40,000 nucleotides of DNA from Phenylobacterium sp. (GTDB lineage Bacteria > Pseudomonadota > Alphaproteobacteria > Caulobacterales > Caulobacteraceae): positions 97,951 to 137,950 of the forward strand of contig NZ_JBEPUO010000007.1 of NCBI RefSeq assembly GCF_041691455.1. The letters run 5' to 3'. Each line of letters starts with the position of its first letter. Position 1 is the stretch's first letter. This document shows, in pieces, positions 5,987-33,994 of the stretch. A program made the translations under genes and the position numbers. The notes under the pieces were generated by a model. The model was not told the origin of the DNA and did no database searches. It saw only the letters and a program-made list of their open reading frames with translations.

Positions 5987-6106
5987 TACCCGCCGCCCCT
6001 GGCGGGACGCCCCAGCCGGGCCTAGTCACAGACACAACCGTGGTGGCGTCGACAGCCAGGTCTGGGCTTGTCATATGCCTCGGTCGACAACGGAGAGACC
6101 GCCCGC

Positions 6107-8761: not shown

Positions 8762-9123
8762 GGTGAAGTCTCCTTGCTCAAGCGAGGCCGCCCGTTGCGG
8801 CCGCGATGGCGATCGAGAGACCCGGCCGGACAGCGCCGGCGCAGACGAAGTCCCGCAGCGGAGCGGAGGACGGTGACGGCGGGCTTTCTTGCCTCGCGAG
8901 GAATGGGGCCGAAGGGCCCAGGGGAGGAAAGCCGGCCAAGCCGTTGCGGCGACGCCCGGCCAGGTCCAGATCACGTCAGAGCGGCTGCCACGGCGCGTCC
9001 CGCTCAAAGGAAGACGCCGCTCCCCGACTCAGAGAGACTCAAGCAAACCGTGGATGTCGCGCCGGCCCGAACCAGAGCAGACTGCCCTCCCCCACGGCGA
9101 AGGCCAACCGGACCCACGACCAG

Positions 9124-11115: not shown

Positions 11116-12030
11116 ATGACGGCGACCGTCATCACCATGTGCAGCAACCGCAAGCGAGGCGACCCCGCCGCCGACCTGTCGGCCGCAGGGCTTGCCCGAG
11201 GAACCGCGGACGCCGTGGCGGCGGTCTGGGGGCGACGACTGGTCCAAGCCCCCTGCGCGCTGACCGCCCGCCAACTGTATGGCGGCCGTGGCTTTCGGGA
11301 AGCGGAAGCCGCCGCCGAGGCTCAGGGCGGGGCGTTTTTGGTGGTGTCGGCCGGCCTCGGCCTGGTCGCTGCGGATGCGGCGGTCCCGGCCTACGGCCTG
11401 ACCCTGCTGGCCAGCCACGCGGATGGCATCTTGGGAAAGATCGACGACGACGAGGCCTCGGCCTGGTGGCGCGCCCTGACGTCCGTATCCCCCTTCCACA
11501 GCCCCGACATTCCGGGACGCGGGCTCATTTTGGCGGCGCTCTCGGCCCCCTACATGGCGATGGTGGCCGACGACTGGGCGGGGTGGCCCGCGGAGCGGTT
11601 CGCGCGGCTGCGAGTATTCAGTAAGTCCCCGCCGGTCGGCGCGGCGGCCGCGCTCGCGCCGGCGTGGATGCCTTACGACGACCGACTGGACGCCATCGGT
11701 CCGGGACACGCGGGGACGCAGGCCGACTTCGCCCAGCGCGCACTCCGGCACTTTGCGGTCACGTTCACGACGTCCAGCCGCGGCGCACCATCCGACGCCG
11801 CGGCCGTGCGGGCCGGGCTGCAGGGCCTGACCGAGCGCGAACGCCCGGAACGGAAGCGCCTTGACGATGCTGACCTGCTCGCGCTGATTTCCGCGGAGTG
11901 GGACGCAGCCGGGGGGCGGTCGGGGGCCATGCTGCGACGGCTGCGCGACGACCTGCACATCGCCTGTGAACAGTCCCGGCTGAAGACACTGTTCAAGACG
12001 GTGGCCGCGTCCAGAGGGTCAGCGTCATGA
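11116..12030 (+). CDS. dpdC: DpdC-like protein (YaaA/DUF328-like); predicted preQ0-DNA to amido-deazaguanine (ADG) conversion
   Basis: 304 aa. The pattern VITMCSNRK / ARQLYGGRGF / LVVSAGLGLVAADAAVPAYGLTL parallels the YaaA motifs ISPAK / Y.G / LSGLYGVLRPLD..PYRLEM. It is the first gene of the operon, and its stop overlaps the dpdB start (ATGA). The assignment rests on pattern plus context. Confidence 0.55.
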   Translation: MTATVITMCSNRKRGDPAADLSAAGLARGTADAVAAVWGRRLVQAPCALTARQLYGGRGFREAEAAAEAQGGAFLVVSAGLGLVAADAAVPAYGLTLLASHADGILGKIDDDEASAWWRALTSVSPFHSPDIPGRGLILAALSAPYMAMVADDWAGWPAERFARLRVFSKSPPVGAAAALAPAWMPYDDRLDAIGPGHAGTQADFAQRALRHFAVTFTTSSRGAPSDAAAVRAGLQGLTERERPERKRLDDADLLALISAEWDAAGGRSGAMLRRLRDDLHIACEQSRLKTLFKTVAASRGSAS

Positions 12031-13130
12031 CCCGGGGTGAGCAGGTCATCGTGCGGGCGCTTCGAACGCGCCAGGCCACGTCGATCGACGTCTATGAATT
12101 CTTCATCCGCGGCGCCCAGGTCGCGCAGATCGCCGACATCTCGCGGCTGCGGCGCGGCGACGGCGAGCTCGAAGGGTTCCAGCGGCGGGAGATCAAGTCC
12201 CACGTGGCGGAGATCGCCGAGTTCCTCGCCCAGGGGCCCGTGCTGTTCCCCAACGCGATCATCCTGGCCCTGTCGCCCGAGGTCCGCTTCGAGCAGTCCC
12301 GCGGCCCCAAGATCGGCGACGACGCGGTGATCGCCGGTAAACTCTCTCTGCCACTGCGGCCGGAAGGCCAACGCGCCGCCTGGATTGTCGACGGCCAGCA
12401 GCGCTCGCTGGCGCTCGCCAAGGCGAAGGACTGCGACCTCCTGGTGCCGGTGGTGGCGTTCGTTTCCGCCGATGTGGCGGTGCAGCGGGAGCAGTTCATT
12501 CTGGTGAACAAGGCGCGGCCGTTGCCTCCGCGCCTGATCGACGAGCTCCTGCCGGAGATGACCCTGGCCCTCCCCCGGGACTTGAAGGCCCGGCAGGTGC
12601 CGAGCGCCCTGTGCAGCGCCCTGCACGACGATCCGAAGTCGCCATTCCATGGCCTGATCAAACGCGGCTCCGAACCGGGCGCGCCCACCGCCGTCGTCAC
12701 CGACCGGGTGCTGATCGACACGCTGGTGGGCAATCTGCGCGCCGGTGGCGCACTGGGGGCCTACCGCGCCGGCGACGGACTTGAGCCGCTGCACGAAGCG
12801 CTCTGCACCTACTGGCAGGCGGTTCGCGAGGCCTTCCCGGACGCTTGGGGGCGGCCTGCGGGCGACAGCCGGCTGATGCACTCCGCCGGGATCCGCGCCA
12901 TGGGCGCGCTGATGGACCCGGTCTGGACCCGCGCCGACGCTACCGCCGATCCGGCGTCGCATGTGCGGGAGTCCCTGGCGCGCCTGGCCCCCTATTGTCG
13001 CTGGACCGAGGGGGTCTGGGGCGACTTGGGGTGGGGCTGGAACGACCTTCAGGCGACCTCAAGACACATCAAGGGCCTCACCGAATATCTGTTGCAGCTC
13101 GACCGCAGCCTCGCGCGGCCTTCGCGATGA
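12027..13130 (+). CDS. dpdB: DGQHR-domain (DndB/ParB-like) protein, DpdB
   Basis: 367 aa. Motifs: WIVDGQQRSLAL (DGQHR motif), GFQRREIKSHVAEIAEFL, LFPNAIILAL, QFILVNKARPLP. ATGA overlaps occur with both neighbouring genes. Confidence 0.8.
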   Translation: MTRGEQVIVRALRTRQATSIDVYEFFIRGAQVAQIADISRLRRGDGELEGFQRREIKSHVAEIAEFLAQGPVLFPNAIILALSPEVRFEQSRGPKIGDDAVIAGKLSLPLRPEGQRAAWIVDGQQRSLALAKAKDCDLLVPVVAFVSADVAVQREQFILVNKARPLPPRLIDELLPEMTLALPRDLKARQVPSALCSALHDDPKSPFHGLIKRGSEPGAPTAVVTDRVLIDTLVGNLRAGGALGAYRAGDGLEPLHEALCTYWQAVREAFPDAWGRPAGDSRLMHSAGIRAMGALMDPVWTRADATADPASHVRESLARLAPYCRWTEGVWGDLGWGWNDLQATSRHIKGLTEYLLQLDRSLARPSR

Positions 13131-14416
13131 AGTTCGTGTTCGCCGACAGCCTCGACGTGGTCGATCCGGGATACGACTTCCTCAACGACCGGCATTCCCC
13201 GGGGCGCAAGCCCTACTGGGACGACGCCTATCCGCACGAGATCCTCGGCTACGCCCCCTACGACGGCATCCTGGTGTCCCGCGGCATCGTCGGCGACGGC
13301 CCGGTGAAGGGCAAATATTCCGACGCCCAGGCCATGCGCTTCAAGCGGGTGGGCGCCCGCACCTTCCTGCGGCTCGACAAGCCGGAGTTTGCGGGCCTCA
13401 GCCTGTTCGGCGACTGCGGCGCCTTCACCTACGTCAACGAGACCGTCCCGCCCTACACGCCGGCGGACACCGCCGAGTTCTACGACACTTGTGACTTCAC
13501 CCACGGCTGCTCCGTGGACCACATCATCTTCGACTTCCTTGAAGACGAACTGGGTCTGGCGGGCGCCACGCCGGAGGCGCAACGGCGCTTCGACCTGACG
13601 CTGGCCAACGCCGAAGCGTTCCTGACTGAGGCGCGCCAGTCCCATCGGTTCACGCCGCTCGGCGTGATCCAGGGCTGGTCGCCCGCCAGCATGGCTGAGG
13701 CCGCCCGCCGCTTGGTGGCCATGGGCTACGACTATCTAGCGATCGGCGGCATGGTGCCTCTTAAGATCAACCAGATCGCTCGGGCCCTCGCCGTCATCCG
13801 CGCGGCCATCCCCGCTGGGGTGCGCCTGCACATCCTGGGCTTCGGCAAGGCCAACGAGATGCTGGATGTCGCCGCCCATGACGTCACCAGCTTCGACACC
13901 ACCTCGCCGCTGATCCGCGCCTTCAAGGACGACAAACAGAACTACTGGGTTCCCCGCGCGGGCGGCGGGGTGGGCTACTACACGGCGATCCGGATCCCGC
14001 AGGCCATCGAGAACCCGCGGCTGCAACGTCTGGTGAAGCAAGGGGATTTCCGAGCGGAGGAACTGACTCGGCTTGAAGGTCTGTCCCTCGCGGCCCTGCG
14101 GGCGCACGACAAGGCGCCCCAGGACGTCGAGGCGGTGCTGGAGCCGATCCTGGAATACAACGCCATCCTGGCCACCGGCCGTCCGTTCGAAGACGTCCGG
14201 CAGCACCCCACGATGCAGAAACTAGCGGTTCGCTACCGCGAGACCCTCAGGGACCGGCCCTGGACAAAATGTCCTTGCCCCATTTGCCGTGACGCCGGCG
14301 TAGAGGTGATGATCTTCCGCGCCAGCAACCGCAACAAGCGGCGCGGCATCCACAATCTGGGGATCTTCAAGACCGTCCTTGACGGTTTGCCCGCAACTTC
14401 GGACGACGCTGCATGA
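13127..14416 (+). CDS. dpdA: DpdA, tRNA-guanine-transglycosylase-superfamily DNA 7-deazaguanine transglycosylase
   Basis: 429 aa from the ATG at 13127 (ATGA overlap). The track ORF 12845..14416 has an unsupported 5' extension that overlaps dpdB. The C-terminal WTKCPCPICRD...GIHNL gives the CxCxxC...H zinc site of the TGT superfamily. It is embedded between DGQHR proteins and queDC. Confidence 0.85.
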   Translation: MKFVFADSLDVVDPGYDFLNDRHSPGRKPYWDDAYPHEILGYAPYDGILVSRGIVGDGPVKGKYSDAQAMRFKRVGARTFLRLDKPEFAGLSLFGDCGAFTYVNETVPPYTPADTAEFYDTCDFTHGCSVDHIIFDFLEDELGLAGATPEAQRRFDLTLANAEAFLTEARQSHRFTPLGVIQGWSPASMAEAARRLVAMGYDYLAIGGMVPLKINQIARALAVIRAAIPAGVRLHILGFGKANEMLDVAAHDVTSFDTTSPLIRAFKDDKQNYWVPRAGGGVGYYTAIRIPQAIENPRLQRLVKQGDFRAEELTRLEGLSLAALRAHDKAPQDVEAVLEPILEYNAILATGRPFEDVRQHPTMQKLAVRYRETLRDRPWTKCPCPICRDAGVEVMIFRASNRNKRRGIHNLGIFKTVLDGLPATSDDAA

Positions 14417-15528
14417 GTTCCCTCACCTTCTTCGCCACGCGGGCCCGCCAGAGCGTCGAGCACGAGGTGCTGACCTTCGCCGCCACGGCCGAGCAGGTGT
14501 TGAGCTTCGCCCAGATCGACCGCATCGGCCGCGACGCGCAAGGCGAACTGCAAGGCTTCCAGCGACCGCAGATCGCCCACCACATCCGGGAGATCCGGGA
14601 TTATCTGGAAAAGCCGGACGCCGTGCTGCCCAACGCGATCGTGATCGCGTTCACGGAGGGCGTCGTCTTTAAGGAGACCCAGCCTGGCATCTGCAAGGTG
14701 ACCATCGACATAACCGATGGCCCCCGTGGCTTGGTGGTTGATGGCCAGCAGCGGCTCTCGGCGCTCAGCCAGGTAAACCGGCCCGACTTCCAACTGTTCG
14801 TCTCGTTGCTGATTTGTCGGGACGACATGGAATTGCGCCGCCAGTTTGTGCTGATCAACAACACCCGGCCCTTGCCTAAGTCGCTGATCTACGAGCTGCT
14901 GCCGACCGTGGACGGCCTTCCCGACCGCATGGAGAGCCGCTCGACGGCGGCGACCCTGACGGAACGTCTGAACCGAAGCGAGAGCTCGTCGCTGAAGGGC
15001 CAGATCAGCCAGCACACCAATCCGGACGGCGCGATCAAGGACACGGTTTTCCAGAGGGCCATGATGACCTCGCTGAGCGACGGGGTCCTTCGGGAGTTGA
15101 TCGATCTGCCCGGCGGAGAGGCCAAGTGCGTCAAGCTGGTGAGCGAGTTCTTCAAGGCGGTCCAGAACACCTTCCCCGAGGAATGGTGGGGTCAAACCGC
15201 GAGTTCCTCGCGTCTTCTCGGCGGCGCCGGCATCCAGTCCATGGCGTATGTGATGGACGACTTGGCCCACGGTGGCGCGCGGACTTGGCGGGAGTTCGCC
15301 GAGGGCCTGGAGTGCCTCAAGGGCAAGACCGCCTGGACCGCAGGCTCCTGGGACTTTGGCGGGGGCGATGTCCGCCACTGGCACGCGATCAACGTGGTCA
15401 ATCGCGACGTGGTGATGATCACCAACTATCTGCAGACCCTGGTGCGGCGCGACCAGCGCGCGCGCCGAAGCGGAGACCCCGCGCCGGCGCCGCTCATGGA
15501 GCGGCTGCTTTCACCGAACGACTCGTGA
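14413..15528 (+). CDS. second DGQHR-domain (DndB/DpdB-like) paralogue
   Basis: 371 aa. It is clearly paralogous to 12027-13130: GELQGFQRPQIAHHIREIRDYL, VLPNAIVIAF, LVVDGQQRLSAL, QFVLINNTRPLPKSLIYELLP. An ATGA overlap joins it to the dpdA stop. Confidence 0.8.
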   Translation: MSSLTFFATRARQSVEHEVLTFAATAEQVLSFAQIDRIGRDAQGELQGFQRPQIAHHIREIRDYLEKPDAVLPNAIVIAFTEGVVFKETQPGICKVTIDITDGPRGLVVDGQQRLSALSQVNRPDFQLFVSLLICRDDMELRRQFVLINNTRPLPKSLIYELLPTVDGLPDRMESRSTAATLTERLNRSESSSLKGQISQHTNPDGAIKDTVFQRAMMTSLSDGVLRELIDLPGGEAKCVKLVSEFFKAVQNTFPEEWWGQTASSSRLLGGAGIQSMAYVMDDLAHGGARTWREFAEGLECLKGKTAWTAGSWDFGGGDVRHWHAINVVNRDVVMITNYLQTLVRRDQRARRSGDPAPAPLMERLLSPNDS

Positions 15529-15547
15529 TCTTCTCCGCAGCGCAGCC

Positions 15548-15919
15548 ATGTATGAACTGACCAAGCAATTCCGCTTCGATGCGGCCCACACCCTCCTCCG
15601 CGACGTCGAAGCGGACGGGAGCCGGCGCATTCATGGGCATTCCTATCGCGCCGAGGTGACCCTGCGTGGGGCGCCCGACCCGGCCAGCGGCATGATCATC
15701 GATACGCGGATCCTGGCCGACAAGCTGGAAGAGACCCGCTGCGCCTTGGACCATCGCTTCCTGGACGAGATCAACGATCTCGGTCCCGGCACGATGGAAA
15801 ACCTCTGCAGCTTCATCTGGCGCCGCCTCGAGCCCGACATTCCCAGCCTGCACAGCGTCACCGTCCTGAGGGATTCCACCGCCGATCGCGTCACCTACTA
15901 CGGTGAGAGCCCGGCGTGA
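15548..15919 (+). CDS. queD: 6-carboxy-5,6,7,8-tetrahydropterin synthase QueD
   Basis: 123 aa. FRFDAAHTL...[12 protein letters not shown]...GMIIDTRIL is typical of the QueD/PTPS family. Confidence 0.9.
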
Positions 15920-16623
15920 GCGGCGCCCTAGTGCTGTTCTCCGGCGGCCAGGACTCCGCGACCTGCCTGGCCTGGGCCCTGACCCGCTTCGAGCGGGTCG
16001 AGACCATCGGCTTCGACTACCGCCAGCGGCATCGCGCGGAACTCACCGCTCGCAGCGAATTCCGGGCCGACCTGGCCCGCGCGTTTCCGGACTGGGGCGT
16101 CAAGCTGGGCGACGACCACATGCTGGACCTGGGCGTCCTCGCCGAGGTCAGCGATACGGCCCTGACCCGGGACATGGCGATCGCCACCGCCGCCTCCGGC
16201 CTGCCCAACACCTTCGTGCCCGGCCGCAACCTGCTGTTCCTGACCTTCGCCGGCGCCGTCGCCTACCGCCGCGACCTCAAGCACATCGTCACCGGCGTCT
16301 GCGAGACCGACTACTCGGGCTATCCGGACTGCCGGGACGACACCATCAAGGCCCTGCAGGTCGCCCTTAACCTCGGCATGGAGCGGCGCTTCGTCCTCGA
16401 GACCCCGCTCATGTGGATCGACAAGGCTGCCACCTGGGAGATGGCCCGCCAACTCGGCGGCCTGCGCCTCGTGGACCTGGTCCGCGACCGGACGCTCACC
16501 TGCTACGAGGGCGACACCACCCACGAGCACGCCTGGGGCCGCGGTTGCGGCGTCTGCCCGGCCTGCGATCTTCGCGCGAAAGGCTATGTCGCCTGGCGGC
16601 GTATGGAGTCGGTTCAGGCCTGA
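15916..16623 (+). CDS. queC: 7-cyano-7-deazaguanine (preQ0) synthase QueC
   Basis: 235 aa. It has the PP-loop [18 protein letters not shown] and the C-terminal Cys cluster CYEG...[11 protein letters not shown]. The GTG start overlaps the queD stop (GTGA). Confidence 0.92.
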
Positions 16624-16625
16624 AC
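16612..16625. repeat. perfect 14-bp palindrome GTTCAGGCCTGAAC containing the stop codons of both convergent genes (queC and the dpdD-like gene)
   Basis: Read directly. On each strand the palindrome reads GTT CAG GCC TGA, so both proteins end in V-Q-A-stop. The two coding regions overlap by 10 bp (16614-16623). Confidence 0.9.
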
Positions 16626-18695
16626 GGCGGCTAGGGCGGTTTCCGCCCATTCCTCCACGGCTCGGACGATACTGCTCGCCCCTTTGCCCGCCGCATAGAC
16701 CAGGGGCCGCTCGCCCCGCTTGCCCTTGAGAAATTCCGTGGCCGCGTGTTTAGCGGACGCCCAGACCACGACCACCAGGTCCGATCGCGACGCCATGGCC
16801 GCCAGCGCCGCGCTGCCGCCGCGGTCGTGATTGAGATCGACGCTGACGTTGGGCGCCGCCCGGGTCAGCAGAGCCTGAGCCTGCCGGGCGGCCGGCTCCG
16901 TGAGGGTATAGATTCCGACCGTCTTGCCGCCGAGTACCTGGGCGATGGCGGTAACGTCGGGAGCGGCCTGGGCGCCGCTCTCCGCGACCAGCCCCGCATC
17001 TTCGGCCAGTGCCGCCAGGGCCACGCGCTGGCCGTCCGAGAGGCGTGCGGCTAGGCCTTGCAGCACGGAGACGACATTGACGGTGAAGTTCTGGAGGCGC
17101 GCCGCATCGACGGGCGACACCGCGCGCGCCGTATCGACGACGTCCAGCACGTCGTAGGCGGACGCCCGGCTTACCGCCTCGACGCACACGGTTTCGGCGG
17201 CGTCGAGCGCATCGCGATAGTCGGCCGAACTCAGGCCGCTGCGCAGAGCGCCGTCCAGAAGCGCCGAGGTGGAGCGCAACAAGGCGTCGCCGCGGCGCGC
17301 CGCGAACGCCATCCGCACCAGCAGCGCGAGATAGACGGATCGATAGGCCTCGCGCGGCCATTGCGGATCGCCCTGAGCCCACTGCACGAGGAAGGGCATG
17401 GCCTCCCCCAGGCGCTCTTCGGCGAGCCCCTCCGGAATGTTAGCGATCTGGTCGGCCAGCCGGAAAGCCGCCGCCGGATCCGCAGCCCCCGCCGGCAGAC
17501 GCCAGGCCGTCGCACCCAGCCGCGCACTTTCGAGCGCATCGAAGGTCTCGTCTCCGAGCCGCGTCAGCCAGGCCGCCCAGTCCTGCGGCGGCGCGATGTC
17601 GCCCGCCCTGGCACGCACTTCCTCCCATAGAGCCCGGAACATCGGGCGTTCGAGGAGACGGCCCTGCGCCGGCAGGTCCAGGGCGCGCATGGCGTCCTGG
17701 AGGGCGGCATCGGCATCGGGGTCGCCCTCCGCCGGGCTGCTGGCCACCACGAGAAAGGCGGTCTGTGCACGTTGTAGCGGGTCCTGCGGCGCCGGCGCAG
17801 CGTCCGGCGCCCTCGCGGGCGCAACGTCGGCCTGAACGGCGGCCGGGGCCTCCGGGGCCGGCGCGGCGTTCGAAACCAGGACGCGCAGCCGTTCCACCGC
17901 GTCGGCGGCCGGGTTCGGCGCACGGGCCAGCAGCGACGCCACGAACGGAAAGGCCTCGTCGTCGGCGAGCTCGTCGGGGGTCCGCTCCCGCCCGTCTTCC
18001 GGATCGAAAGCGGCGCACCAGTAGATGGCTTCCAGCAACACCTCGGCCGTGGCGGGCGAAGGTCCCGAGAGCGCCAGGCTCTCGAAGCGGTCGTGCCAGC
18101 GGATCGCCGTCCAGTCCCCGGCGACTGCGAGGATCTGCATCTCCAGTTGGGTGAGGTTGATGGCGTCCAGGCGGAGTTCCGACCTCAGCCGCCCGTGAAT
18201 GCGCCAGGCGTCCGCTACGTCGCCGCCGTTCAGGGCGTCCTGCAGTCCCCCCAGGAGCCGCGACGTGGGTTCCGGACGCGACAAGGTGAGGACGGGGGCC
18301 GTCGCCAGAAGGGTCTGCAGCCGGCTCAGCGCCCGGATGACCGCCAGATCGGACTGAGGCTCCAGCCCCGGGCGGAGTCGGGCGACCGCGCTGGCGCCGC
18401 TCGCGAAAAGGATCTGCGCGAGCGGGTCGGCCGTGGGAACGCTCAACGGAACGCCGTGGAAATCCGTCAGGGTCGGACCGGAGAAAGCCAGCAACAGCGG
18501 CTGCAGCTTGCGCCACTCGGACGGAGAGCCCGCGACGGCATAGACGCAGAAGCCGCCATCGGCCTGGCGCGCCGGCAGCAGGCCGCCGGGGAAGCTCTCC
18601 TGGCTAAGCGTGGCCGCCAGGTCGCCGGCGCCGGCGGGCAGCGCGGCCCAGTCCGCCGCCGCGCCGAAAGCCGCAAGATCCAGGGTCAGCGCCAC
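16614..18695 (-). CDS. dpdD: DpdD-like protein (last gene of the restriction array), with a C-terminal DUF2325-like Rossmann-type module
   Basis: 693 aa. The GTG start overlaps the dpdK stop by 10 nt. Most of the protein has no motif I recognise. The C-terminus [11 protein letters not shown]...[22 protein letters not shown]...[14 protein letters not shown] resembles the DUF2325 pattern. The name is assigned by elimination, size and context. Confidence 0.5.
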
Positions 18696-19213
18696 GTGAG
18701 GTGACTCCCCCAGCGTTCGGTCAGGGCCAGCCGCCGCATCGCCGCCGCCTGCGGGTCGGCCCGCAGGAGCACGTGCTCGTCGCTCGTGGTGAGGCCGCTG
18801 AGCGTGAAGTTCATCGAACCGCCGAACACATAGTCCTCGCCGACCAGGGTCTTCTCGTGCGCGTCCGGCGAAATCGCCAGACCGAGCCGCCCGTCGGCGC
18901 GGGCCTGCGCCTCGCGCAGCGTCCGGAGGAAATAAGCGTTGTGGTCGACCTCGCGCACGACGACCGCCACCCGTGCGCCGCGTTGGGCGACGGCTTCGAG
19001 CATCTGGGTCAGCCGGATGGAGCCGGCGGGCCAGTCGGGCCGCACCGCGCTGAACGCCCGGGCGCCGTTGTCGACGATCTCCACGTCGCTGATCCAGGCC
19101 GAGAGCACCCAGAGCTCTGCGCTGGGCCGGAGAAGCTCCGTCAGAAAGAGGGTTTGCAGGGCGTCGCGGATGGCTCGGCTCTGCCAGGGGCCCGTGAAGT
19201 CGCGGCTCGTCAT
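18686..19213 (-). CDS. dpdK: single-HKD phospholipase-D-family nuclease, DpdK-like
   Basis: 175 aa from the ATG at 19213 (TGATG junction with the dpdJ stop). HKD motif: HEKTLVGEDYVFGGSMNFT (HxK...D...GSxN). Above 19213, the 940-aa track ORF 18686..21508 is an alternate-frame shadow of dpdJ. Confidence 0.8.
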   Translation of the reverse strand: MTSRDFTGPWQSRAIRDALQTLFLTELLRPSAELWVLSAWISDVEIVDNGARAFSAVRPDWPAGSIRLTQMLEAVAQRGARVAVVVREVDHNAYFLRTLREAQARADGRLGLAISPDAHEKTLVGEDYVFGGSMNFTLSGLTTSDEHVLLRADPQAAAMRRLALTERWGSHLTWR

Positions 19214-27400: not shown

Positions 27401-27457
27401 GTCGATATTGATGACGTCCGTGACGCGCTCGGGATCCCAGCAGACGACCTGTTTCAT
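24446..27457 (-). CDS. dpdH: large P-loop NTPase, DpdH-like
   Basis: 1003 aa. Walker A is AVLGPSGAGKSHVIHRM. A candidate Walker B, ELVILFEEFARLQG, lies about 240 aa downstream. ATGA overlap with the dpdG stop. Confidence 0.7.
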   Translation of the reverse strand: MKQVVCWDPERVTDVINIDADFVPDPVFWAVDTATPLRVTDPYAGPAREMSTEQLVEQFLDPVRGHYQLAVLGPSGAGKSHVIHRMRQLVELRSGFEVLAIRRLETNLRAVLEKLIQRLPPEERARYLEDLQRAGTTLATPEAQKSVLLDSLAQAIEEDTPQPQPGMDPELEQVLLAALPDLLRDPHLRPTKFLADGEVVSQLVDRLFSAREGKRLDEQILFDKDSLPLSGLDLLKCSKPARDAIEIYLYDADRTIPSVLTVINRNLNRAIARALNFSGDLLGELMGRIRTRLKAEGRELVILFEEFARLQGYDLAMLSALLVQGGENLCNVRWALACTSGRFRDLPDTVRTRMDAIVDLEDAPPRPDLAAFTARYLNAVRVGKTGLDQAFGLSARELPNACEGCEWRPDCFAAFGASREGMGLYPFTAAALPDFARRAGADDGERFNPRRFQRRVLKPVLMEEAANLKTGSFPSLALLNQLGGADILSFERGRLQEKAGPRFDQYLAFYQLWNAGRLNGAADPALQAFGLPPLSGFAESGPEPIEDDISSAEAAASDDGTSSSAGPKVAARDPVAVQLGAWIDGGRLDQSLAQTLRNGLFPLIERSIDWDELGLLPTTFASATASTGNRPFRNQSIQFANQATTGGVGGAIRLELPLRRDAAGFTATALALEVLLKHQKTGDWNQAFGLEGLAALSELATACANEVSRQLKGLAGNPKTWDPVAGAVDLLLVGSALAGGLATGPITDEKMIEAIFRPMPDESPFADGKLSAVYTRLRTKRANLQSLLRAHVSASKGGRQGRPIDPRPVRDAARRLRRQKWALSRTPAPLPDLYAEIGDLYALVLRDLPPALAAERDARVAWLAEIDAAFGPETGRQDILQAARAAAAAAIAEGVHAPAPALERSCAELAQVQFDAAVRSARVVATADPPEAELPTYARGRREAVEAASRLVTAWTAFLDAAETEIAQKRTDAGVDQISEKIGRLSQVVDDLVSELEPLETEA

Positions 27458-28317
27458 GCGGCCAGCCCCGGCCGCGCGACATGGCTCACCCGGCCGGCGT
27501 CCAGCAGACCTGGTACGAAGACCACCTCGGCGTCGTTGAGCATGTCGAAGGTCAGGACGCCCCGCTGTTTGGCGCGCTGCAGGGCCAGGGCCAGGGCCGG
27601 AGACGCCGCCCGGTCGGCGGATTCCAGACCGATCCGGTCCGCCACTTCGCGTCGTACGGCCCCGCCGTCGAACACAGGGCAGACCTTCGCCAGGTCGCTC
27701 ATGAACTTCCCGAGCGTGGCCTCGGCCCCCGGCGCCAGGACGCGATCAAGGCGCGCGAGCAGCGCCGCCGTCGGATCGGGCACGACGATCTCGTCCTTCA
27801 GGTTGAAGCGGGTGACGAACCCCAGGGTCCGGGCCCAGTAGACGGCCTGCTGAAAGCGGCTGTCGTTCGACATTCCGTAAGTGTCGCTCTGCCCGAGCTG
27901 ACGGAAGATCCGGGTGGTGGCGCCCGAGCCGCCCCACGGCAGGGCCTCCAGCGGATCCTGGCACAGGAACCAGGCGATGGCCCCCGCCATCCATCCCGAC
28001 GAAGGGCCGGCGCTATCGACCTGATCGACCATCCGGGAGGCGGCCACGTCCAGGAACGTCAGGCCCGGCTGGCGCACGGCTTCGGCCAGCCGCACCCGGT
28101 CCTCCTGCGCCTCGAATACGCCGAGATCCACACCGAGCCCGAGGCAGTCGCCCAAGGCGTTGTCTTCCCCGGGTTCGTCGCCCCGCGCCAGGGACGGCGG
28201 TCCCACCAGGGCCGCAAGCTTCTCGCGCTCCTCGCCCGGCTCTCCGGCCTCCGCCAGGATATCGAACAGGATCGTCATCCGGTGAGGGGTCGCGCCGACG
28301 GCGGTGATGGCCTTCAT
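27454..28317 (-). CDS. dpdG: DpdG-like hypothetical protein
   Basis: 287 aa. ATGA overlaps on both sides. Composition is balanced. No motif recognised. The name comes from position and size only. Confidence 0.5.
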   Translation of the reverse strand: MKAITAVGATPHRMTILFDILAEAGEPGEEREKLAALVGPPSLARGDEPGEDNALGDCLGLGVDLGVFEAQEDRVRLAEAVRQPGLTFLDVAASRMVDQVDSAGPSSGWMAGAIAWFLCQDPLEALPWGGSGATTRIFRQLGQSDTYGMSNDSRFQQAVYWARTLGFVTRFNLKDEIVVPDPTAALLARLDRVLAPGAEATLGKFMSDLAKVCPVFDGGAVRREVADRIGLESADRAASPALALALQRAKQRGVLTFDMLNDAEVVFVPGLLDAGRVSHVARPGLAA

Positions 28318-30794
28318 GTGCCCAGCCTCTCCAGCAATGCGTCCAAGGAGATCACCCGGCCGTTGTAGCGCTCCAGCAGGGCTTCGCCAGGCCGGTCCGG
28401 ATCCGGAAAATCCTCCGGCAGCAGGACGACGCGGGCATCGCGCCGTGGTTCCCCGAGCCGAACGGACCCGCCGGGCGCCACAAGCAGCACTTCGGCGCCC
28501 CGGGGAAGCCTCGACGTGGCGCGGCTCGCCGCAACGCTCGTGAAGATCGGCAAGGTCTCCAGGGCCTCAAGCGCCCGCGAGAACAGAGGCTGGGGCTCGC
28601 CGGGCATGCGGAGCATGCGCACGCCGCCGCCCCAGATCTCCGCCAGGGCCGAGGCCGCGCGGCGAAGGCTGTAGCCGCCGGACGCGCCCGGCGCATAGGT
28701 CACCACGAGTTCGCCGTCCTCGATCAGGTCGGCCAGCGGCGGCCAGCAGGGCGGCGCGTCCCAGGGGGACGCCGGTTCCCGCCGCAGGGGATCGGGACGC
28801 GCGGCGTGGGGGTCGACCCGGCAGAGACGACAGGAACTGCAGCCGGCGAGAAGGCGATCGGCGCCATAGAGCGACTCGAGCAGCGCCGAGGGGCAGATGT
28901 TCCCGCGCAGGTGTTGCAGCATCAGGTTCAGGTTGCGGGTTCGGGCCGCGGCGATCGCCGCGCGCACCGGCTCCACGAACCGCGTCCAGATCTCGGCCTT
29001 CAGGTGTCCCGGCTCGAGCACCTCGATCGTCTCGTAGACCCCCGGTTCGTCTGGGCCGGAGGCCACGTCGCCGACCAGCCGCACCAGGCCGGCGCGGCTC
29101 ATCAGGGTCAGGATGCGCGCATTCCACTGCAGACTGCGTTCGCCCACCAGATCGATATCGGCCTCGTCCGGGCCCGGCGCGACGTCGAGGCGGACCCGCA
29201 CGCGCTGGCCGCCCAGATGGCGGCTGTCGGGGTGATGGAACATCGCGCTCCAGCGCTGCAGACCGCGCACGACGGTGATCACCCGCTCGCGGTTGAGCCC
29301 ACGGGCGACCCGCACGTCCGCCACGGTCGGGGCGATCAACGATAGGCACGCCCCGCCGTCCCGGCCGCCCCGGCCGACCTCCTGATAGAACCGGTCGAAG
29401 GTCTCGGGCACACAGGCGTGGATCACGCTGCGGACGTGCGGATAGTCGATCCCCAGGCCGAACGCCGAGGTGGCCACGACCAGGTCCAGTTCACCGCCGC
29501 GCCAGGCCGCCAGGGTCTTTTCGCGTTCGGCGTCGGGCGATTTTCCGTGAAAGGCGGCGCACCGGCGGAAGCCCATTTCGCGGATCCGGGCCGCCCACCG
29601 CACGGCGTCCGCGACCTTGGTGACATAGAGCACGGCCGGCCGCGGCGCATGCAGCAGGGCCGCCTCCACCGTCGCCTCCCGGGTGGGCTCGTCGGCGACG
29701 GGCGCGACGTAGTAGGCCGGCTCGGGGCGCGTCTGCGCCGCCGACAGCAGGCGCAACCGGTCGGGGGCCGCGAACAGGGTTTCGAGCGTGTCCAGGGTCT
29801 CGGGCGTCAGCGTCGCCGACAGCAGGATGGTGCGCAGCGCGAGGTCCGGGGGCGCCGCCGCCATCAGTTCGTGGCGCAGCCCCGACAGGCTCTGGAATTC
29901 CGGCCGGAAGCCGGTGCCCCAGGCGTCGACCAGGTGCGCTTCGTCCAGCACCAGTGCTTTCAGCCGGCCCGCCTGGGCGAGATCCACCAGGTCCGATCGC
30001 AGGCTGCCGCAGGCCGCCTCCGGCGCCGCAAAGACCAGGCCCGACTTCAGGACGGTCAGCCGCTCCCGGATCGCGGCCCGCCGGGCGGCGTCCTGTCCGA
30101 CGTAGGCCAGGATCTCATCCGGATCGCGGCGACAGGCGTTCTCGTGGTCGTAGCCGAGCGCCACCGTGGGCACCACGACCAAGGTCACGCCCTCGCCGCC
30201 CGAGGTGCGGCCTGACGCGAAGCCCACCCGGTCGATGGCGCGGAAGACCAGGCTCTTGCCTTCGCCGGTGGGCAGATCGATCGCCAGGGCGCCGCCGGCG
30301 GGCGTCAGCAAGGCGGCGCGCACCGCCGCCCGTTGGCCGACCGAACGATAGCGCGCGTAGCCGAGCGGCCGAACGAAGGGATCGGGCGACGGACCCTGGT
30401 CTGCCGCCCCAAACCGTCGGCGGGCCGCCGCGGCCGCGACGGCGTCTGGCTCGGGCTCCGGGTCGGCGAGCCAGGGCGGCCGCCAGGGGGCCGCCCAGAG
30501 ATGCGACCCGTCGGGAGACTCCAGGCCGGCCGCGCGCAGGGACGCCGGGTCGAGGATCCGGACAGTCGGACGCCGGCATCGCGCAGGCCGCTCCAGGGGA
30601 CTTCGGCTGGTTTCCAGCAGCAGCAGCTGGCGCAGGAGGACGGCGAGATCCAGAGCGCTGGCCGACGGGTCCGCGAGCGCCTGACGCAGACGTTCGCCCG
30701 CAGGATCCGCGACGGTGAAATCGTCGAGACCCCGCTCGCCGACCAGGGCCGCGCGGAGCGCTGCGAACGCCGGGCCGTCGCTGACGACCGTCAT
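28314..30794 (-). CDS. dpdF: RecQ-like DEAD/DEAH helicase, DpdF-like
   Basis: 826 aa. Motifs: AIDLPTGEGKSLVF (I), LVLDEAHLVDAWGTGFRPEF (II, RecQ-style), LLSATLTPE (III), ATSAFGLGIDYPHVRSVIH (V), YQEVGRGGRDG (VI). Confidence 0.85.
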   Translation of the reverse strand: MTVVSDGPAFAALRAALVGERGLDDFTVADPAGERLRQALADPSASALDLAVLLRQLLLLETSRSPLERPARCRRPTVRILDPASLRAAGLESPDGSHLWAAPWRPPWLADPEPEPDAVAAAAARRRFGAADQGPSPDPFVRPLGYARYRSVGQRAAVRAALLTPAGGALAIDLPTGEGKSLVFRAIDRVGFASGRTSGGEGVTLVVVPTVALGYDHENACRRDPDEILAYVGQDAARRAAIRERLTVLKSGLVFAAPEAACGSLRSDLVDLAQAGRLKALVLDEAHLVDAWGTGFRPEFQSLSGLRHELMAAAPPDLALRTILLSATLTPETLDTLETLFAAPDRLRLLSAAQTRPEPAYYVAPVADEPTREATVEAALLHAPRPAVLYVTKVADAVRWAARIREMGFRRCAAFHGKSPDAEREKTLAAWRGGELDLVVATSAFGLGIDYPHVRSVIHACVPETFDRFYQEVGRGGRDGGACLSLIAPTVADVRVARGLNRERVITVVRGLQRWSAMFHHPDSRHLGGQRVRVRLDVAPGPDEADIDLVGERSLQWNARILTLMSRAGLVRLVGDVASGPDEPGVYETIEVLEPGHLKAEIWTRFVEPVRAAIAAARTRNLNLMLQHLRGNICPSALLESLYGADRLLAGCSSCRLCRVDPHAARPDPLRREPASPWDAPPCWPPLADLIEDGELVVTYAPGASGGYSLRRAASALAEIWGGGVRMLRMPGEPQPLFSRALEALETLPIFTSVAASRATSRLPRGAEVLLVAPGGSVRLGEPRRDARVVLLPEDFPDPDRPGEALLERYNGRVISLDALLERLGT

Positions 30795-33700
30795 CGGCGC
30801 GCAGCCTGCGGAATGTGGCCCGCGGCGACGATGGCCCCGACGCAGTCCAGCCGGGCGGCGGGTCGGGCGATCGCGTCAGCCACCATGGCGTCGAGCTCGG
30901 CCTCCCGCGCCAGCGTCGGCGACGGCCGGATCTGGCGGCGCACGCTCCGGCGCGCCGCGCGGCGGTCCAGTTCGGCGCTCGCCATCCCGCGCCCCTTCTG
31001 CGTCCAGGCTTCATAGTCGGGCGAAGCCACGAGGCGCGCCAGAGCCACGTCGCGCGCCGCGAAACACAGGCTCGCGAAGGCCTTGGGCTGCAGGACGCGC
31101 GCGAGCCAGTCTGGGCGGCTGCCGAGGTTGAAGTCGCGCCCACCCTCCTCCAGGGCCTCCGGCGCAAACGGCCGCTCCAGGATCTTCAGCCAGGCCGGGT
31201 CGTCGATGGTCTCCAGGTCCGGGCCGATATGCTGGGTCAGGGTCCAGGTGGGCATCAGCGACTGGGCGAACCGCTCCAGCGCCTCCACCGACTCGCCGCC
31301 TTCCAGTCGGGCCGCGTCGATGCGGCCCGGACCCACCACCCAGCAAAGGCGGAAAGCCAGCCGCTCTTCGCCCCATCCGCCGCCGCCCGGCTCGAAGCGC
31401 CAAGTGGCGAACGCCGATCCACGGTCGTCCCAGTCGAGGAGCTGCTGCAGCGGCTCGGTCAGAGCCGATCCCGGACGGATCAACCGGACGTCCTTGCGCG
31501 CGACGGCGACGCGACGCTTCCAGGTGAGCGGAACCTGCAGCGCCGGCGCAAAGCGCCGGCCCCACGGCGGGTCCGGCAACTGGGTGTCGGGCGCCCAGGC
31601 CAGCGTGAAGGCGTCGGCATCCAGCGCCCGCACCTTCAACTGCAGCATGCCGCGAACCAGACCGTCGACGTCGCGGCCAAGGGCGGACTCGTCCACTTCC
31701 GCCGCCTCGATCGACTCCACCAGGCTGCGCGCCGAGTCGCGCGACATCGCCAGCTGATCCAGGGCGTATTGCTCGTCGAGCGCGGTACGCTGGGCGCTGA
31801 GCTGCGCCCTGAGGCCGGGCTCGAATTCGGCAAGCGCCTCCGGACCCTGAAGCAGCCGCTCTTCGATCTCCGCATCGATCGCGGCGAGCGCAAACTGAAT
31901 GTCGCTGGTCGGCTTGTCGAAGATTTCGAATCCGGTCCGCAGGAGCTGCAGCCAGGCCGTCCACAGCGTGTCGTCGTCCAAGGCGGGCGTCAGGACGATA
32001 TGCCGGATCGGACCCTTGGTTCGACCAAAGCGATCGAGGCGCCCGATCCGCTGTTCGAGCCGCCCCACGGCGAAGGGCAGGTCGGCGTGCAGGATGGCGT
32101 CCGCGAAATGCAGATTCAGCCCCTCCTCTCCCGCTTCGCTCAGCACCGCGAGCGCCGGCCCGGGATGCCCTTCGAAAGCCTGCGCCAGATCGGCCTGGCC
32201 AGCGGCGGCGAAGACGGCGGTGTCCGCCGTCGCGCCCGCACACTCGGCGACTGCCGCGGCCATGTCGGCCTCCGAGCAGAAGACGACGAGTTTTGGCGCC
32301 GACGCGCCCGCGGACCGCAGGAACCGCAACTGGCGCGTCGCGATCTCGGCGACGAGGGGCGCCCGGCGCACAACGCGATCCGGGCCGAGGCTTTCGGCCA
32401 TGGCGCGCACGAGGTCGGCCTCGCCGGCGAAGAACTCGGTGGGCTCCGATGGAAGGTCCCGACCCGTCGTCACGGCCTCCAGCAAGGCCACGTGTCGCCG
32501 TTGCAGACGCTTCGCCGCCTCGGGTTTCGCCTCTTGCGCCAGCAAGGCCGCTGTCCGCCAGTCTTCCAGAGCCGCCAGAGCGCCGGCCAGCCCCGGGTCG
32601 TCGTCCTCTTCCTCGCGGACCGGCGCCGGACCCCTTGGCTGAAACTCCCATCCTTCGAGATCCGAGCGGCGGGCGCGGATGATCCTGTGATGGATGCGAT
32701 AGGTGTCGGCGATATGATCGCGCAGTCTGTCCGTCACGCCCGCGCGGGTTTCAGGGTCTTCGCTCTGGAGAAACCGCGCCGTGAGATCCTGGACGATCGG
32801 ATCCTCCGGGAAAGTCGACCGGGCTGCGGACATACGCTGCTTAAGGACGAAGGGACTGGCGTCCGCGCGCAACCCCAACAGGAGGCGACCATAGGTCTGC
32901 GCTTCGGCCACGTGCGTTCGAAAGTCCACGAGCGGCTCGTCGCCCCAGCGGTCGCGATCCAGAAGCTTGAGGAGCCCCAGCAGCGTCGCCTCATGGCCGA
33001 TGGGCGGAGTCGCCGACAGCAGCAGCAATTTCTCCGCCACCGCCGAGAGGCGCAGCAAGGGCGCGGGCAGCACGTCCCCGCCCGCGAGCCGGTGCGCCTC
33101 GTCCACCACAAGGATCGTGGCTGGGCTCAGGCCGTCCGAGAGATCCGAATGCGGCCGGACCCGGGTGCGGTCCGCGCCAAGTCCGGAGAGCCCAAACCTT
33201 TCCTCCAGTTCGTGGGTCCATTGCCCCGTCAAGGTCTCGGGCGCCAGCACCAACGCGGTGGCGGACGGATCGTCGAGGAGCGTCTGGCGAACCACGGCCC
33301 CGGCTTCGATCGTCTTGCCGAGCCCGACCTCGTCGGCGAGCAGGTAACGCTGCAGGGGATCGTGCAGAATGCGCCGAACGGCATCGGCCTGGTGCGGCAC
33401 CAACTCCACGGAGGCCGACACCAAGCCGGTAAGGCCCTGCGCCGCTGCCCGAAGATTGGTCAGGGCGCGTCGCGCCGGCCAGCGCGCGTCCGCCCAGCGT
33501 TGGGTCTCCGCCGCGCCGAAGGCCAGCACCTCCGCCGGGTCCCCGTCGTTGCTAAAGCAGCGGACGCGGAGCGCCGATTCCGGGATGTCGCTGACGTCCT
33601 GGTTCGGCGCCCGGACCTCGTAGGTCACCGCTCCGCCGTCCTCGAGCAGGAAATCGCGAACTCGTCCCATGCGCCAGCGATCGTCGCTGCGGCGGAAGTA

Positions 33701-33994
33701 AACTCGGGTCTGGCGGGGCAGATAGGTGCGCCTCACCGTCTGGAGTGGCAGCCGGACGCGTTCCTGCCGCGTCGTCGAGTGAAAGAACTCCACGTCCGCA
33801 TGCTGATCGTCACGTCCCAGAAGCAGGCCGACGCCCCTAGGGTCGTCGACCTCCACAAAGTATGGCTGTTGCAAACTGACCAGCCCCCCGACCGAAGCAT
33901 GGACGTGAACCGCCATGTTCGGCAACCGCGAGTTGCTGGTCGGACGTGGGTGATCGCGACGAGACGTAGGCCTTAGCCCGCCGCCGTTGGCCAC
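30791..33994 (-). CDS. dpdE: SNF2/RapA-like helicase, DpdE-like
   Basis: Up to 1067 aa. Motifs: LLADEVGLGKTIEAG (I), VVDEAHRL (II), LLLSATPP (III), EEGLNLHFADAILHADLP (V), QRIGRLDRFGR (VI). The start is uncertain: GTG at 33994 or ATG at 33916 (MAVHVHASVGG), and neither has a clear SD. Confidence 0.85.
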   Translation of the reverse strand: MANGGGLRPTSRRDHPRPTSNSRLPNMAVHVHASVGGLVSLQQPYFVEVDDPRGVGLLLGRDDQHADVEFFHSTTRQERVRLPLQTVRRTYLPRQTRVYFRRSDDRWRMGRVRDFLLEDGGAVTYEVRAPNQDVSDIPESALRVRCFSNDGDPAEVLAFGAAETQRWADARWPARRALTNLRAAAQGLTGLVSASVELVPHQADAVRRILHDPLQRYLLADEVGLGKTIEAGAVVRQTLLDDPSATALVLAPETLTGQWTHELEERFGLSGLGADRTRVRPHSDLSDGLSPATILVVDEAHRLAGGDVLPAPLLRLSAVAEKLLLLSATPPIGHEATLLGLLKLLDRDRWGDEPLVDFRTHVAEAQTYGRLLLGLRADASPFVLKQRMSAARSTFPEDPIVQDLTARFLQSEDPETRAGVTDRLRDHIADTYRIHHRIIRARRSDLEGWEFQPRGPAPVREEEDDDPGLAGALAALEDWRTAALLAQEAKPEAAKRLQRRHVALLEAVTTGRDLPSEPTEFFAGEADLVRAMAESLGPDRVVRRAPLVAEIATRQLRFLRSAGASAPKLVVFCSEADMAAAVAECAGATADTAVFAAAGQADLAQAFEGHPGPALAVLSEAGEEGLNLHFADAILHADLPFAVGRLEQRIGRLDRFGRTKGPIRHIVLTPALDDDTLWTAWLQLLRTGFEIFDKPTSDIQFALAAIDAEIEERLLQGPEALAEFEPGLRAQLSAQRTALDEQYALDQLAMSRDSARSLVESIEAAEVDESALGRDVDGLVRGMLQLKVRALDADAFTLAWAPDTQLPDPPWGRRFAPALQVPLTWKRRVAVARKDVRLIRPGSALTEPLQQLLDWDDRGSAFATWRFEPGGGGWGEERLAFRLCWVVGPGRIDAARLEGGESVEALERFAQSLMPTWTLTQHIGPDLETIDDPAWLKILERPFAPEALEEGGRDFNLGSRPDWLARVLQPKAFASLCFAARDVALARLVASPDYEAWTQKGRGMASAELDRRAARRSVRRQIRPSPTLAREAELDAMVADAIARPAARLDCVGAIVAAGHIPQAARR

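Follow-up and report, generated by a model that had tools for sequence, protein, structure and literature searches.

Dpd systems, which place 7-deazapurines in DNA, were reportedly described in 2016, and their modification half is said to have been reconstituted in vitro. Tens of thousands of Dpd instances have since been catalogued (PMC12235509), and dpd islands are horizontally mobile (PMC5699537). As set out in the Salmonella literature (PMC10164549, PMC5699537), DpdA swaps guanine in DNA for preQ0 (7-cyano-7-deazaguanine), which requires ATP hydrolysis by DpdB; DpdC independently turns the deoxynucleoside of preQ0 (dPreQ0) into dADG (2′-deoxy-7-amido-7-deazaguanosine), and DpdD to DpdK carry the restriction phenotype. 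In this study, a 40,000-nucleotide stretch of Phenylobacterium sp. DNA (contig NZ_JBEPUO010000007.1, positions 97,951 to 137,950; hereafter the window) was analyzed. The gene set at positions 11116-33994 is read here, with a probability of about 0.87, as a complete and intact Dpd restriction-modification island on a mobilisable or integrative element.

All 11 protein families of the Salmonella Montevideo system (dpdA-K; PMC10164549) have counterparts in the window, that of DpdI being a most likely one. In that system, too, the modification genes stand apart from an eight-gene restriction operon and a methyltransferase is absent. The window has two DpdB paralogues flanking dpdA, whereas Salmonella Montevideo has one; its queD and queC are embedded in the operon, unlike those of Salmonella Montevideo, and its DpdC and probable DpdI fall into subfamilies that are divergent relative to that system. 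The host is a high-GC alphaproteobacterium, and the island lies among relaxase, ArdC, and serine-recombinase genes, while the Salmonella Montevideo island is found at leuX. A dpd cluster annotated by the Prokaryotic Genome Annotation Pipeline (PGAP) on the Enterobacter cloacae plasmid pPOL9A (NZ_CP086409.1) was used as the canonical gammaproteobacterial comparator. It shows the same dpdE-F-G-H-(I)-J-K-D order, convergent with dpdC-A-B, and its proteins are within about 5-15% of the sizes of those in the window at 23-40% identity. Its only DpdB gene is downstream of dpdA, and the cluster contains neither que genes nor a DUF6308-like gene. In a PGAP-annotated dpd cluster on an Agrobacterium vitis plasmid, the restriction genes follow the order E-F-G-H-I-J-K-D and converge with the modification genes, as in the window; its protein sizes agree with those of the window as well, and a single DpdB gene follows dpdA. 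A DpdA-family transglycosylase and preQ0 pathway genes are also encoded by phages 9g, CAjan, iggy, and others (PMC6884629, PMC10516641). In these phages a large share of G is modified, as a means of anti-restriction, and DpdB, DpdC, and DpdD-K are absent; the DpdA of the window, in contrast, matches the bacterial DpdA equivalog and stands beside a full restriction operon.

Gene models were chosen by third-position GC content (GC3) and start-codon inspection, since spurious frames crowd the open reading frame (ORF) lists of a window with about 68% GC. Fourteen uninterrupted genes with high GC3, mostly translationally coupled, were found within the island (Table 1). Six of them, in the order dpdC-dpdB-dpdA-dpdB-queD-queC, occupy the plus strand at 11116-16623, and all five junctions are 4-nt start/stop overlaps or short gaps. 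The remaining eight run on the minus strand from 33994 down to 16614 in the order dpdE-F-G-H-I-J-K-D, with starts that overlap the preceding stops by 1, 4, or 10 nt. The operons run towards each other, and the 3′ ends of their terminal genes, queC and dpdD, share 10 nt (16614-16623). No terminator-like structure was seen between these two ends; transcription of each operon would thus continue antisense into the other. An Rfam scan of the window returned no family, the preQ1 riboswitch included.

The predicted proteins were compared with NCBIfam equivalogs, which have curated cut-offs, and with PADLOC and Pfam models. Ten proteins (DpdA, both DpdB copies, DpdD, DpdE, DpdF, DpdG, DpdH, DpdJ, and DpdK) pass their NCBIfam equivalog cut-offs, nearly all in end-to-end alignments. 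The PADLOC names are concordant; DpdC is named by PADLOC alone. A first-pass annotation of the same DNA had likened the gene content to the dpd island, and these matches, together with a gene order as in annotated dpd clusters, bear it out. The genes it described were all recovered, at the coordinates it gave. It was also right that queD and queC follow the second DpdB gene, that the minus strand holds eight overlapping genes, and that a DNA methyltransferase is lacking: profile scans detected no methyltransferase domain in the 14 island proteins or in GC3-supported flanking ORFs. The exact sequences are already in RefSeq (WP_372784816 to WP_372784828, Phenylobacterium sp., taxid 1871053) under the names DpdB, DpdA, DpdB, DpdD, DpdK, DpdJ, DpdH, DpdG, and DpdF, while DpdC and DpdI are left as "hypothetical protein". 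The DpdI- and DpdC-position proteins of the Enterobacter cluster, and the DpdI-position protein of the A. vitis cluster, are likewise "hypothetical" in PGAP. We found no publication on this particular locus, though automatic annotation recognizes the island.

The protein encoded between the two DpdB genes had been described as a member of the tRNA-guanine transglycosylase (TGT) superfamily with a CxCxxC...H zinc site, sandwiched between two DGQHR-type proteins. This description was confirmed: the zinc site (C382-x-C384-xx-C387...H409) is encoded at 14270-14353, and both DGQHR proteins are DpdB. Whether it might instead be a tRNA TGT had been set beforehand as a test of the reading. The protein scores 531 bits on the NCBIfam DpdA model (NF041059, cut-off 200) and 17-28 bits on tRNA-TGT models, of which TIGR00430 (24 bits, cut-off 307) and TIGR00449 (28.5 bits, cut-off 47.6) both fall short of their thresholds. 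Its sole PDB sequence match at E <= 0.001 is 7UI4, the DNA-guanine transglycosylase DpdA of Salmonella Montevideo (E 6e-92, 40% identity). Residues shown or proposed to be essential in Salmonella DpdA by Gedara et al. (PMC10164549) were mapped onto the alignment. Asp95, Asp130, Asp256, Phe99, Leu236, and Phe265 of the Salmonella enzyme and its four zinc ligands are all kept; Asp96 (codon 13412-13414), Asp131, Asp257 (codon 13895-13897), Phe100, and Leu237 are the window counterparts of the first five, and C382, C384, C387, and H409 are its ligands. Judged by these scores and residues, the protein is clearly DpdA and no tRNA TGT.

Helicase-rich operons are found in other defense systems as well, and the locus might be seen as a BREX-, DISARM-, or Druantia-type helicase cluster that happens to stand beside queuosine tRNA-modification genes. 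Dpd does share families with these systems: DpdJ with DrmA, DruE, and YprA, DpdE with BrxHII and DrmD, and DpdH/I with BrxC, and the DISARM protein DrmC is a PLD nuclease, as DpdK in the window is a PLD-family protein. DpdJ has been described as YprA-like, DpdE as BrxHII-like, and DpdH/I as BrxC-like (bioRxiv 10.1101/2025.09.15.676423), and the domain content of the window agrees with this. Models of the other systems (BrxHI/HII, DrmD, DrmA, DruE) are partly matched by DpdE, DpdF, and DpdJ. These matches are, however, 10- to 40-fold weaker in bit score than those to the Dpd equivalogs and cover helicase core motifs only, whereas the Dpd equivalogs align end to end and pass their cut-offs; the TGT homologue, moreover, is DpdA and not Tgt. 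Self is marked by 7-deazaguanine base exchange in Dpd, in contrast to methylation in DISARM, BREX, and Druantia, and none of the signatures of the latter (DrmMI/II, PglX, PglZ, DrmB/DUF1998) was detected in the 14 proteins or the flanking ORFs. Such a cluster is effectively refuted by the profile searches, and we find it scarcely credible for this locus.

Within the restriction operon, the SNF2-type helicase, the RecQ-type helicase, the P-loop ATPase, and the 1508-aa DEAH helicase of the first-pass annotation were recovered by both motifs and profiles. DpdE scores 899 bits on its NCBIfam model (cut-off 500) and matches Pfam SNF2-rel_dom. Its start is uncertain because the DpdE profile aligns from residue 46 only; candidates are 33994 (the longest ORF), 33916, 33874, and 33856. 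DpdF scores 734 bits (cut-off 550), with 123 bits on recQ_fam and Pfam matches to DEAD and Helicase_C. DpdH reaches 504 bits (cut-off 450) and matches Pfam AAA_22 at 27.6 bits (cut-off 27), with AAA_16 at 27.2 bits (below the cut-off of 32.6). DpdJ scores 1565 bits (cut-off 800), and its relatives in the PDB are distant (YprA 6ZNP, Lhr 5V9X, and 9TU7). The single-HKD PLD protein of the earlier reading does belong to the PLD family (Pfam PLDc_2, 28 bits) and is DpdK; its motif, HEKTLVGEDYVFGGSMN (residues 119-135, encoded at 18809-18859), departs from the classical form. It reads H-E-K-TLVG-E-D...GGSMN, with Glu at the canonical Asp position of HKD and Asp immediately after. Instead of four proteins without a recognizable motif, which with the five others listed would have made nine for eight genes, three were counted (DpdG, the DpdI-position protein, and DpdD). 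Sequence searches of the PDB (2026 copy) gave no solved structure for DpdB, DpdD, or DpdH.

DpdD, the final gene product of the restriction operon, was modeled with AlphaFold2 (AF2) at a predicted local distance difference test (pLDDT) score of 87, as a helical-repeat body with a C-terminal alpha/beta domain. The PDB fold matches were to helical-repeat (TPR/PPR-like) proteins and, for the C-terminal domain, to receiver-like folds, and none was significant. The predicted strands of the C-terminal domain are residues 592-596, 618-622, 640-644, and 665-668. A Walker-A-like stretch, AQVLGGKT (residues 585-592, encoded at 16920-16943), lies at the first of them. In a 30-sequence alignment the column of Lys590 is neither invariant nor near-invariant; the following IYT/L...E stretch is.

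The proposed course of events would begin with preQ0, made from GTP via the island-encoded QueD and QueC, the QueE encoded at 39 kb, and a FolE encoded elsewhere. DpdA would remove guanine from double-stranded DNA and insert preQ0 by a TGT-type double displacement, with Asp257 as the putative nucleophile and Asp96 as the putative general acid/base. Judging from the Salmonella enzymes, this base exchange would depend on ATP hydrolysis by the ParB-like DpdB. DpdC would then act on DNA-borne dPreQ0, hydrating its nitrile group to give the amide dADG. On its domain content, the operon dpdE-F-G-H-I-J-K-D would restrict DNA that lacks the mark. The helicases DpdE, DpdF, and DpdJ and the BrxC-like DpdH/I most likely scan or translocate on DNA; DpdK most likely cuts, and DpdD and DpdG are most likely scaffold or sensor subunits.

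Relatives of the island were found by a genome-collection scan with DpdJ and then among other loci, metagenome contigs included (labels L001-L087). The scan returned Acidisphaera rubrifaciens and a metagenome-assembled genome (MAG) of the Caulobacteraceae as its two relatives, at 63-64% identity. A. rubrifaciens HS-AP3 has the same overall layout, both DpdB copies included. The MAG has the restriction operon from dpdE to dpdD, with no modification genes within the 24.5 kb fetched. Identity between the DpdE to DpdD proteins of the window and their counterparts in L001 and L002 is 41-74%. The order dpdC-dpdB-dpdA-dpdB-queE-queD-queC was also detected on a plasmid of Caulobacter sp. S6 (= P. montanum; L003), where PGAP labels both copies DpdB, in Phenylobacterium koreense, and on several metagenome contigs. 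The alphaproteobacterial set with two DpdB genes consists of A. rubrifaciens HS-AP3, P. koreense, the Caulobacter sp. S6 plasmid, L008, L010, and L013-L020. These islands share dpdC-dpdB1-dpdA-dpdB2-(queE)-queD-queC with the window, and the module has a DUF6308-like gene as its neighbor. In the window, the restriction and modification operons are convergent; P. koreense and L008 have them co-directional, separated by the DUF6308-like gene.

The same two-DpdB module and DUF6308-like gene were also seen beside a smaller, different restriction set (L003, L010, L013, L014, and L007). Its members are proteins resembling DpdF (a helicase of about 736 aa), DpdG, and DpdH (about 1093 aa), a further protein of about 230 aa, and an AAA/DEAD protein of some 2100 aa, encoded on the opposite strand and distantly similar to DpdJ. 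Matches for DpdE, DpdK, or DpdD were not detected in these five loci. The modification module thus appears to have been exchanged between restriction halves.

Several points weigh against the reading of a complete and intact island. The first concerns DpdC. This protein has no NCBIfam match, its Pfam match to DUF6884 is weak (25 bits, cut-off 30), and its subfamily shows no BLASTP similarity to the DpdC-position protein of Enterobacter. The suggestion that it is YaaA/DUF328-like was not upheld, as current Pfam gives neither match; DUF328 is an older label for DpdC (PMC5699537), while the 2025 survey of dpd islands assigns DpdC to DUF6884 (PMC12235509). It could be argued from these results, and from the "hypothetical" label in RefSeq, that the locus is a Dpd system whose divergent DpdC has a different activity or has lost it, so that the end product stays dPreQ0 or is another derivative; some validated dpd islands do not make dADG (PMC12235509). 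Against this stands a full-length match to a PADLOC DpdC model (PDLC02815, E 5.8e-82), with seven other DpdC models matching more weakly. The gene heads the dpdC-B-A operon in all two-DpdB relatives examined, and its Pfam family, at whatever score, is the one that the survey gives to DpdC. An end product other than dADG is therefore considered improbable.

Precursor supply is the second point. QueD lies below the cut-off of the NCBIfam QueD equivalog (71 bits vs 89); its identity to the QueD encoded in the dpd cluster on the Caulobacter sp. S6 plasmid is 66%. The queE gene is found outside the island, 5 kb past dpdE and beyond two ParB/RepB-like genes and a large serine recombinase gene. The usual queE slot in relatives, between dpdB2 and queD, is empty here, and neither FolE nor a preQ0 transporter (YhhQ/VUT) was detected among the scanned GC3-supported ORFs of the window. 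Precursor supply thus depends on genes elsewhere. Together with the failure to detect a sigma-70-like promoter, this might suggest a silent or decaying remnant, unexpressed or starved of precursor, in a host with unmodified DNA. The slot is equally empty in the closest relative (L008), however, and the product of the queE at 39 kb is 69% identical over 208 aa to the QueE inside the S6 plasmid cluster. None of the 14 ORFs is truncated, their GC3 is high, and their starts and stops are coupled; an active restriction half without modification would be self-toxic. The promoter and terminator scans gave no informative matches; the promoter scan used the E. coli consensus, which has little meaning in an alphaproteobacterium with 68% GC. 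We regard a remnant as very improbable.

The third point is DpdI. Whereas DpdD, DpdE, DpdF, DpdG, DpdH, DpdJ, and DpdK meet the DpdD-K profiles as had been anticipated for the minus-strand proteins, the protein between dpdH and dpdJ scores 29 bits on NF041066 (E 8e-7), far below the cut-off of 150, and has no PADLOC or Pfam match. It is 41-59% identical to its positional orthologues in relatives (41-47% for L001 and L002). An alignment was made of the window protein and its counterparts from A. vitis, Enterobacter, Acidisphaera, and a Caulobacteraceae MAG. The DpdI model is matched by all ten proteins at this position in relatives (best E 9.5e-34); one also has a stray match to an unrelated model at E 0.0025. 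On profile, size, and position, the protein is most likely a divergent DpdI, and DpdI is the least well-modeled Dpd subunit. Fourth, Gln182 of DpdA (13670-13672) replaces His181, a base-recognition residue of Salmonella DpdA. Since Gln is common to all nine DpdAs examined from Alphaproteobacteria and Paenibacillus, with His in the Enterobacter protein alone, the substitution is probably neutral and ordinary family variation. Finally, dPreQ0 or dADG in the host DNA and restriction by this island are predictions from sequence, and the nuclease role of DpdK and the scanning roles of the helicases are predictions for all Dpd systems.

Among the dpd genes, dpdB is the one most frequently found in more than one copy: a published survey counted 801 additional copies in 2335 unique islands, so the two-copy layout is already known as a count (PMC12235509). 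In the window, copy 1 (B1) scores 412 bits on NCBIfam NF041060 (cut-off 300; PADLOC 1.6e-122) and copy 2 (B2) 366 bits. The DGQHR-family motif reads DGQQR in both (12390-12404 and 14740-14754). Compared with positional orthologues at seven other loci, B1 is 51-67% identical to the B1 proteins and B2 50-61% to the B2 proteins; B1 and B2 proteins are 28-34% identical to each other. On these identities, the duplication is old and both copies have been maintained. Both keep all 57 positions that are invariant across the two paralogue groups (GFQR, PN, and VDGQQR among them), and 17 sites show fixed differences between the groups. The DpdB copies therefore look like old, separately conserved paralogues, both apparently intact, with no sign of degeneration in their sequences. 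The Enterobacter DpdB is equidistant from both copies (36% identity each), and the single DpdB of A. vitis is B2-like at 14 of the 17 fixed-difference sites. DpdB1 and DpdB2 may act together, possibly as a heterodimer.

The gene on the other side of dpdC encodes a DUF6308-like protein. Close homologues (at least about 45% identical) adjoin dpd modification genes on the S6 plasmid, in P. koreense, in L008 and L010, and at all eight informative metagenome loci, and two further homologues at 38-39% identity (L070 and L087) also adjoin dpdC. Counted beyond the window, 15 loci show the gene next to the modification module, in three arrangements. The gene is convergent with queC in most loci and divergent from dpdC in the window, L087, and L070. 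In L018 and L020 it is co-directional and heads DUF6308-queE-dpdC-dpdB1, with a gap of about 25 nt. There are exceptions: a homologue in Brevundimonas nasdae has no dpd genes nearby, and one in Caulobacter sp. BE254 lies beside variant restriction genes. Homologues at greater distance (30-41% identity), many of them from gut metagenomes, lack dpd neighbors, and nothing in the conserved surroundings of distant homologues hints at a function, apart from a Y-family polymerase gene close by in four loci. From its linkage we take the gene as a probable lineage-specific accessory gene of Dpd islands, and not as an established component of the system. DUF6308 was not mentioned in the papers of the literature collection searched.

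The AF2 model of the DUF6308-like protein is all-alpha (pLDDT 96.7). A Foldseek search of the PDB returned nothing below E 0.45, and DUF6308 itself was all that came out of a PDB-sequence profile search, a PHROGs search, and a permissive Pfam scan with 35 members of the family. The best geometric match was an 8-oxoguanine glycosylase, at a template-modeling (TM) score of 0.32 and a probability of 0.18, which is not significant. An HhH-GPD-glycosylase reading, prompted by an invariant Lys117...Pro...Pro...Asp130, was considered and is not claimed.

It is tempting to combine these features into a distinct Caulobacterales/Acetobacteraceae variant of Dpd, in which DpdA would work with a DpdB1/DpdB2 heteromer and the DUF6308-like protein would be a functional extra component, perhaps regulating the modification module or handling bases or DNA for it. 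The argument is that both DpdBs are kept as separate orthologous groups with every family-invariant position, and that the DUF6308-like gene stays with the modification genes through three rearrangements. We offer this only tentatively, as a possibility with the odds somewhat against it.

The flanks of the island carry genes of mobile elements (Table 1): relaxase, MobC, SRAP, and ArdC genes on the left, and a ParB/RepB-like pair and a large serine recombinase gene on the right. A similar backbone (SRAP, ArdC, MobC, and relaxase) surrounds the DUF6308-like homologue of B. nasdae, and other relatives lie on plasmids or beside type IV secretion system (T4SS), coupling-protein, or relaxase genes. 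To judge from these neighbors, a mobilisable or integrative element carries the island as cargo. No tRNA gene was found in the window, and a search for element borders gave no convincing direct, inverted, or att-like repeats within it; the matches were chance or shared DEAH-box codons. A near-identity DNA search against plasmids returned only short matches at 72-77% and one 56-bp match at 96%, so the window is not a known plasmid. This setting, and the mobility of dpd islands stressed in the literature (PMC5699537), would also fit a system that serves the mobile element as an addiction or exclusion module, with phage defense as a side effect. That would be another biological role with the same molecular mechanism, and with neither a tRNA gene nor flanking repeats the element is not delimited; we consider it unlikely, though less so than an end product other than dADG.

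Some neighboring genes were noted in passing. The ParB/RepB-like pair and the serine recombinase gene are start/stop-coupled, run in the same direction as dpdE, and lie 41-180 nt upstream of it; the restriction operon might be co-transcribed with them. A 60%-identical homologue of the nucleotidyltransferase-HEPN fusion gene lies beside dpdC in L008. The large helicase at the left end of the window has no domain match in its C-terminal 600 aa or so and may be another defense or conjugation-related gene.

Table 1. Features of the window, in order of position.
Feature	Coordinates	Strand	Length (aa)	Description	Evidence
ResIII/DEAD helicase	905-4219	+	1104		weak matches to PADLOC PbeA and dnd-associated restriction enzyme models
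MobA/VirD2 relaxase	4325-5350	-		left flank	profile scan
MobC/NikA-like	5347-5868	-		left flank	profile scan
SRAP protein	6068-6841	+		left flank	profile scan
ArdC	7476-8375	-		left flank; anti-restriction protein	profile scan
Nucleotidyltransferase-HEPN fusion	8806-10029	+		left flank	profile scan
DUF6308-like gene	10244-10873	-	209	divergent from dpdC	Pfam DUF6308, 28 bits (cut-off 27.3)
dpdC	11116-12030	+	304	presumed conversion of dPreQ0 to dADG in DNA	PADLOC DpdC
dpdB copy 1 (B1)	12027-13130	+	367	DGQHR/ParB-like; predicted ATPase partner of DpdA	NCBIfam DpdB
dpdA	13127-14416	+	429	predicted DNA-guanine transglycosylase	NCBIfam DpdA; PDB 7UI4 match
dpdB copy 2 (B2)	14413-15528	+	371	DGQHR/ParB-like	NCBIfam DpdB
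queD	15548-15919	+	123	6-carboxytetrahydropterin synthase; preQ0 synthesis step	Pfam PTPS, 96 bits
queC	15916-16623	+	235	7-cyano-7-deazaguanine (preQ0) synthase	Pfam QueC, 225 bits; TIGR00364, 200 bits (cut-off 150)
dpdD	16614-18695	-	693	final gene of restriction operon	NCBIfam DpdD, 464 bits (cut-off 300); PADLOC 3e-97
dpdK	18686-19213	-	175	PLD family; likely nuclease effector (predicted)	NCBIfam DpdK, 183 bits (cut-off 100)
dpdJ	19213-23739	-	1508	YprA/DrmA-related SF2 helicase; Walker A 23200-23223, DEAH 22645-22656	NCBIfam DpdJ
dpdI (divergent, most likely)	23739-24449	-	236		sub-threshold NCBIfam DpdI; position
dpdH	24446-27457	-	1003	P-loop ATPase; Walker A GPSGAGKS at 27218-27241	NCBIfam DpdH
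dpdG	27454-28317	-	287		NCBIfam DpdG, 109 bits (cut-off 80); PADLOC 5e-12
dpdF	28314-30794	-	826	RecQ-like SF2 helicase; DEAH at 29934-29945	NCBIfam DpdF
dpdE	30791-33994	-	1021-1067	SNF2/BrxHII-like helicase; DEAH at 33092-33103	NCBIfam DpdE
ParB/RepB-like gene	34036-34965	-		right flank	profile scan
ParB/RepB-like gene	34962-35852	-		right flank	profile scan
Large serine recombinase	35852-37453	-		right flank	profile scan
queE	39027-39716	+		7-carboxy-7-deazaguanine synthase; radical-SAM	Pfam Radical_SAM; S6 QueE homology

Within the Dpd family the island is ordinary, intact, and already annotated automatically; its layout is lineage-specific, and it is no discovery in itself. Its value lies in what it offers for work on the restriction mechanism of the family and in two features of the lineage. 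The compact, fully coupled, high-GC operon from a non-pathogenic alphaproteobacterium is a reasonable alternative source of proteins for the study of sensing and cutting by DpdD-K, and the paired DpdB paralogues and the linked DUF6308-like gene could help to improve the model of mark writing.

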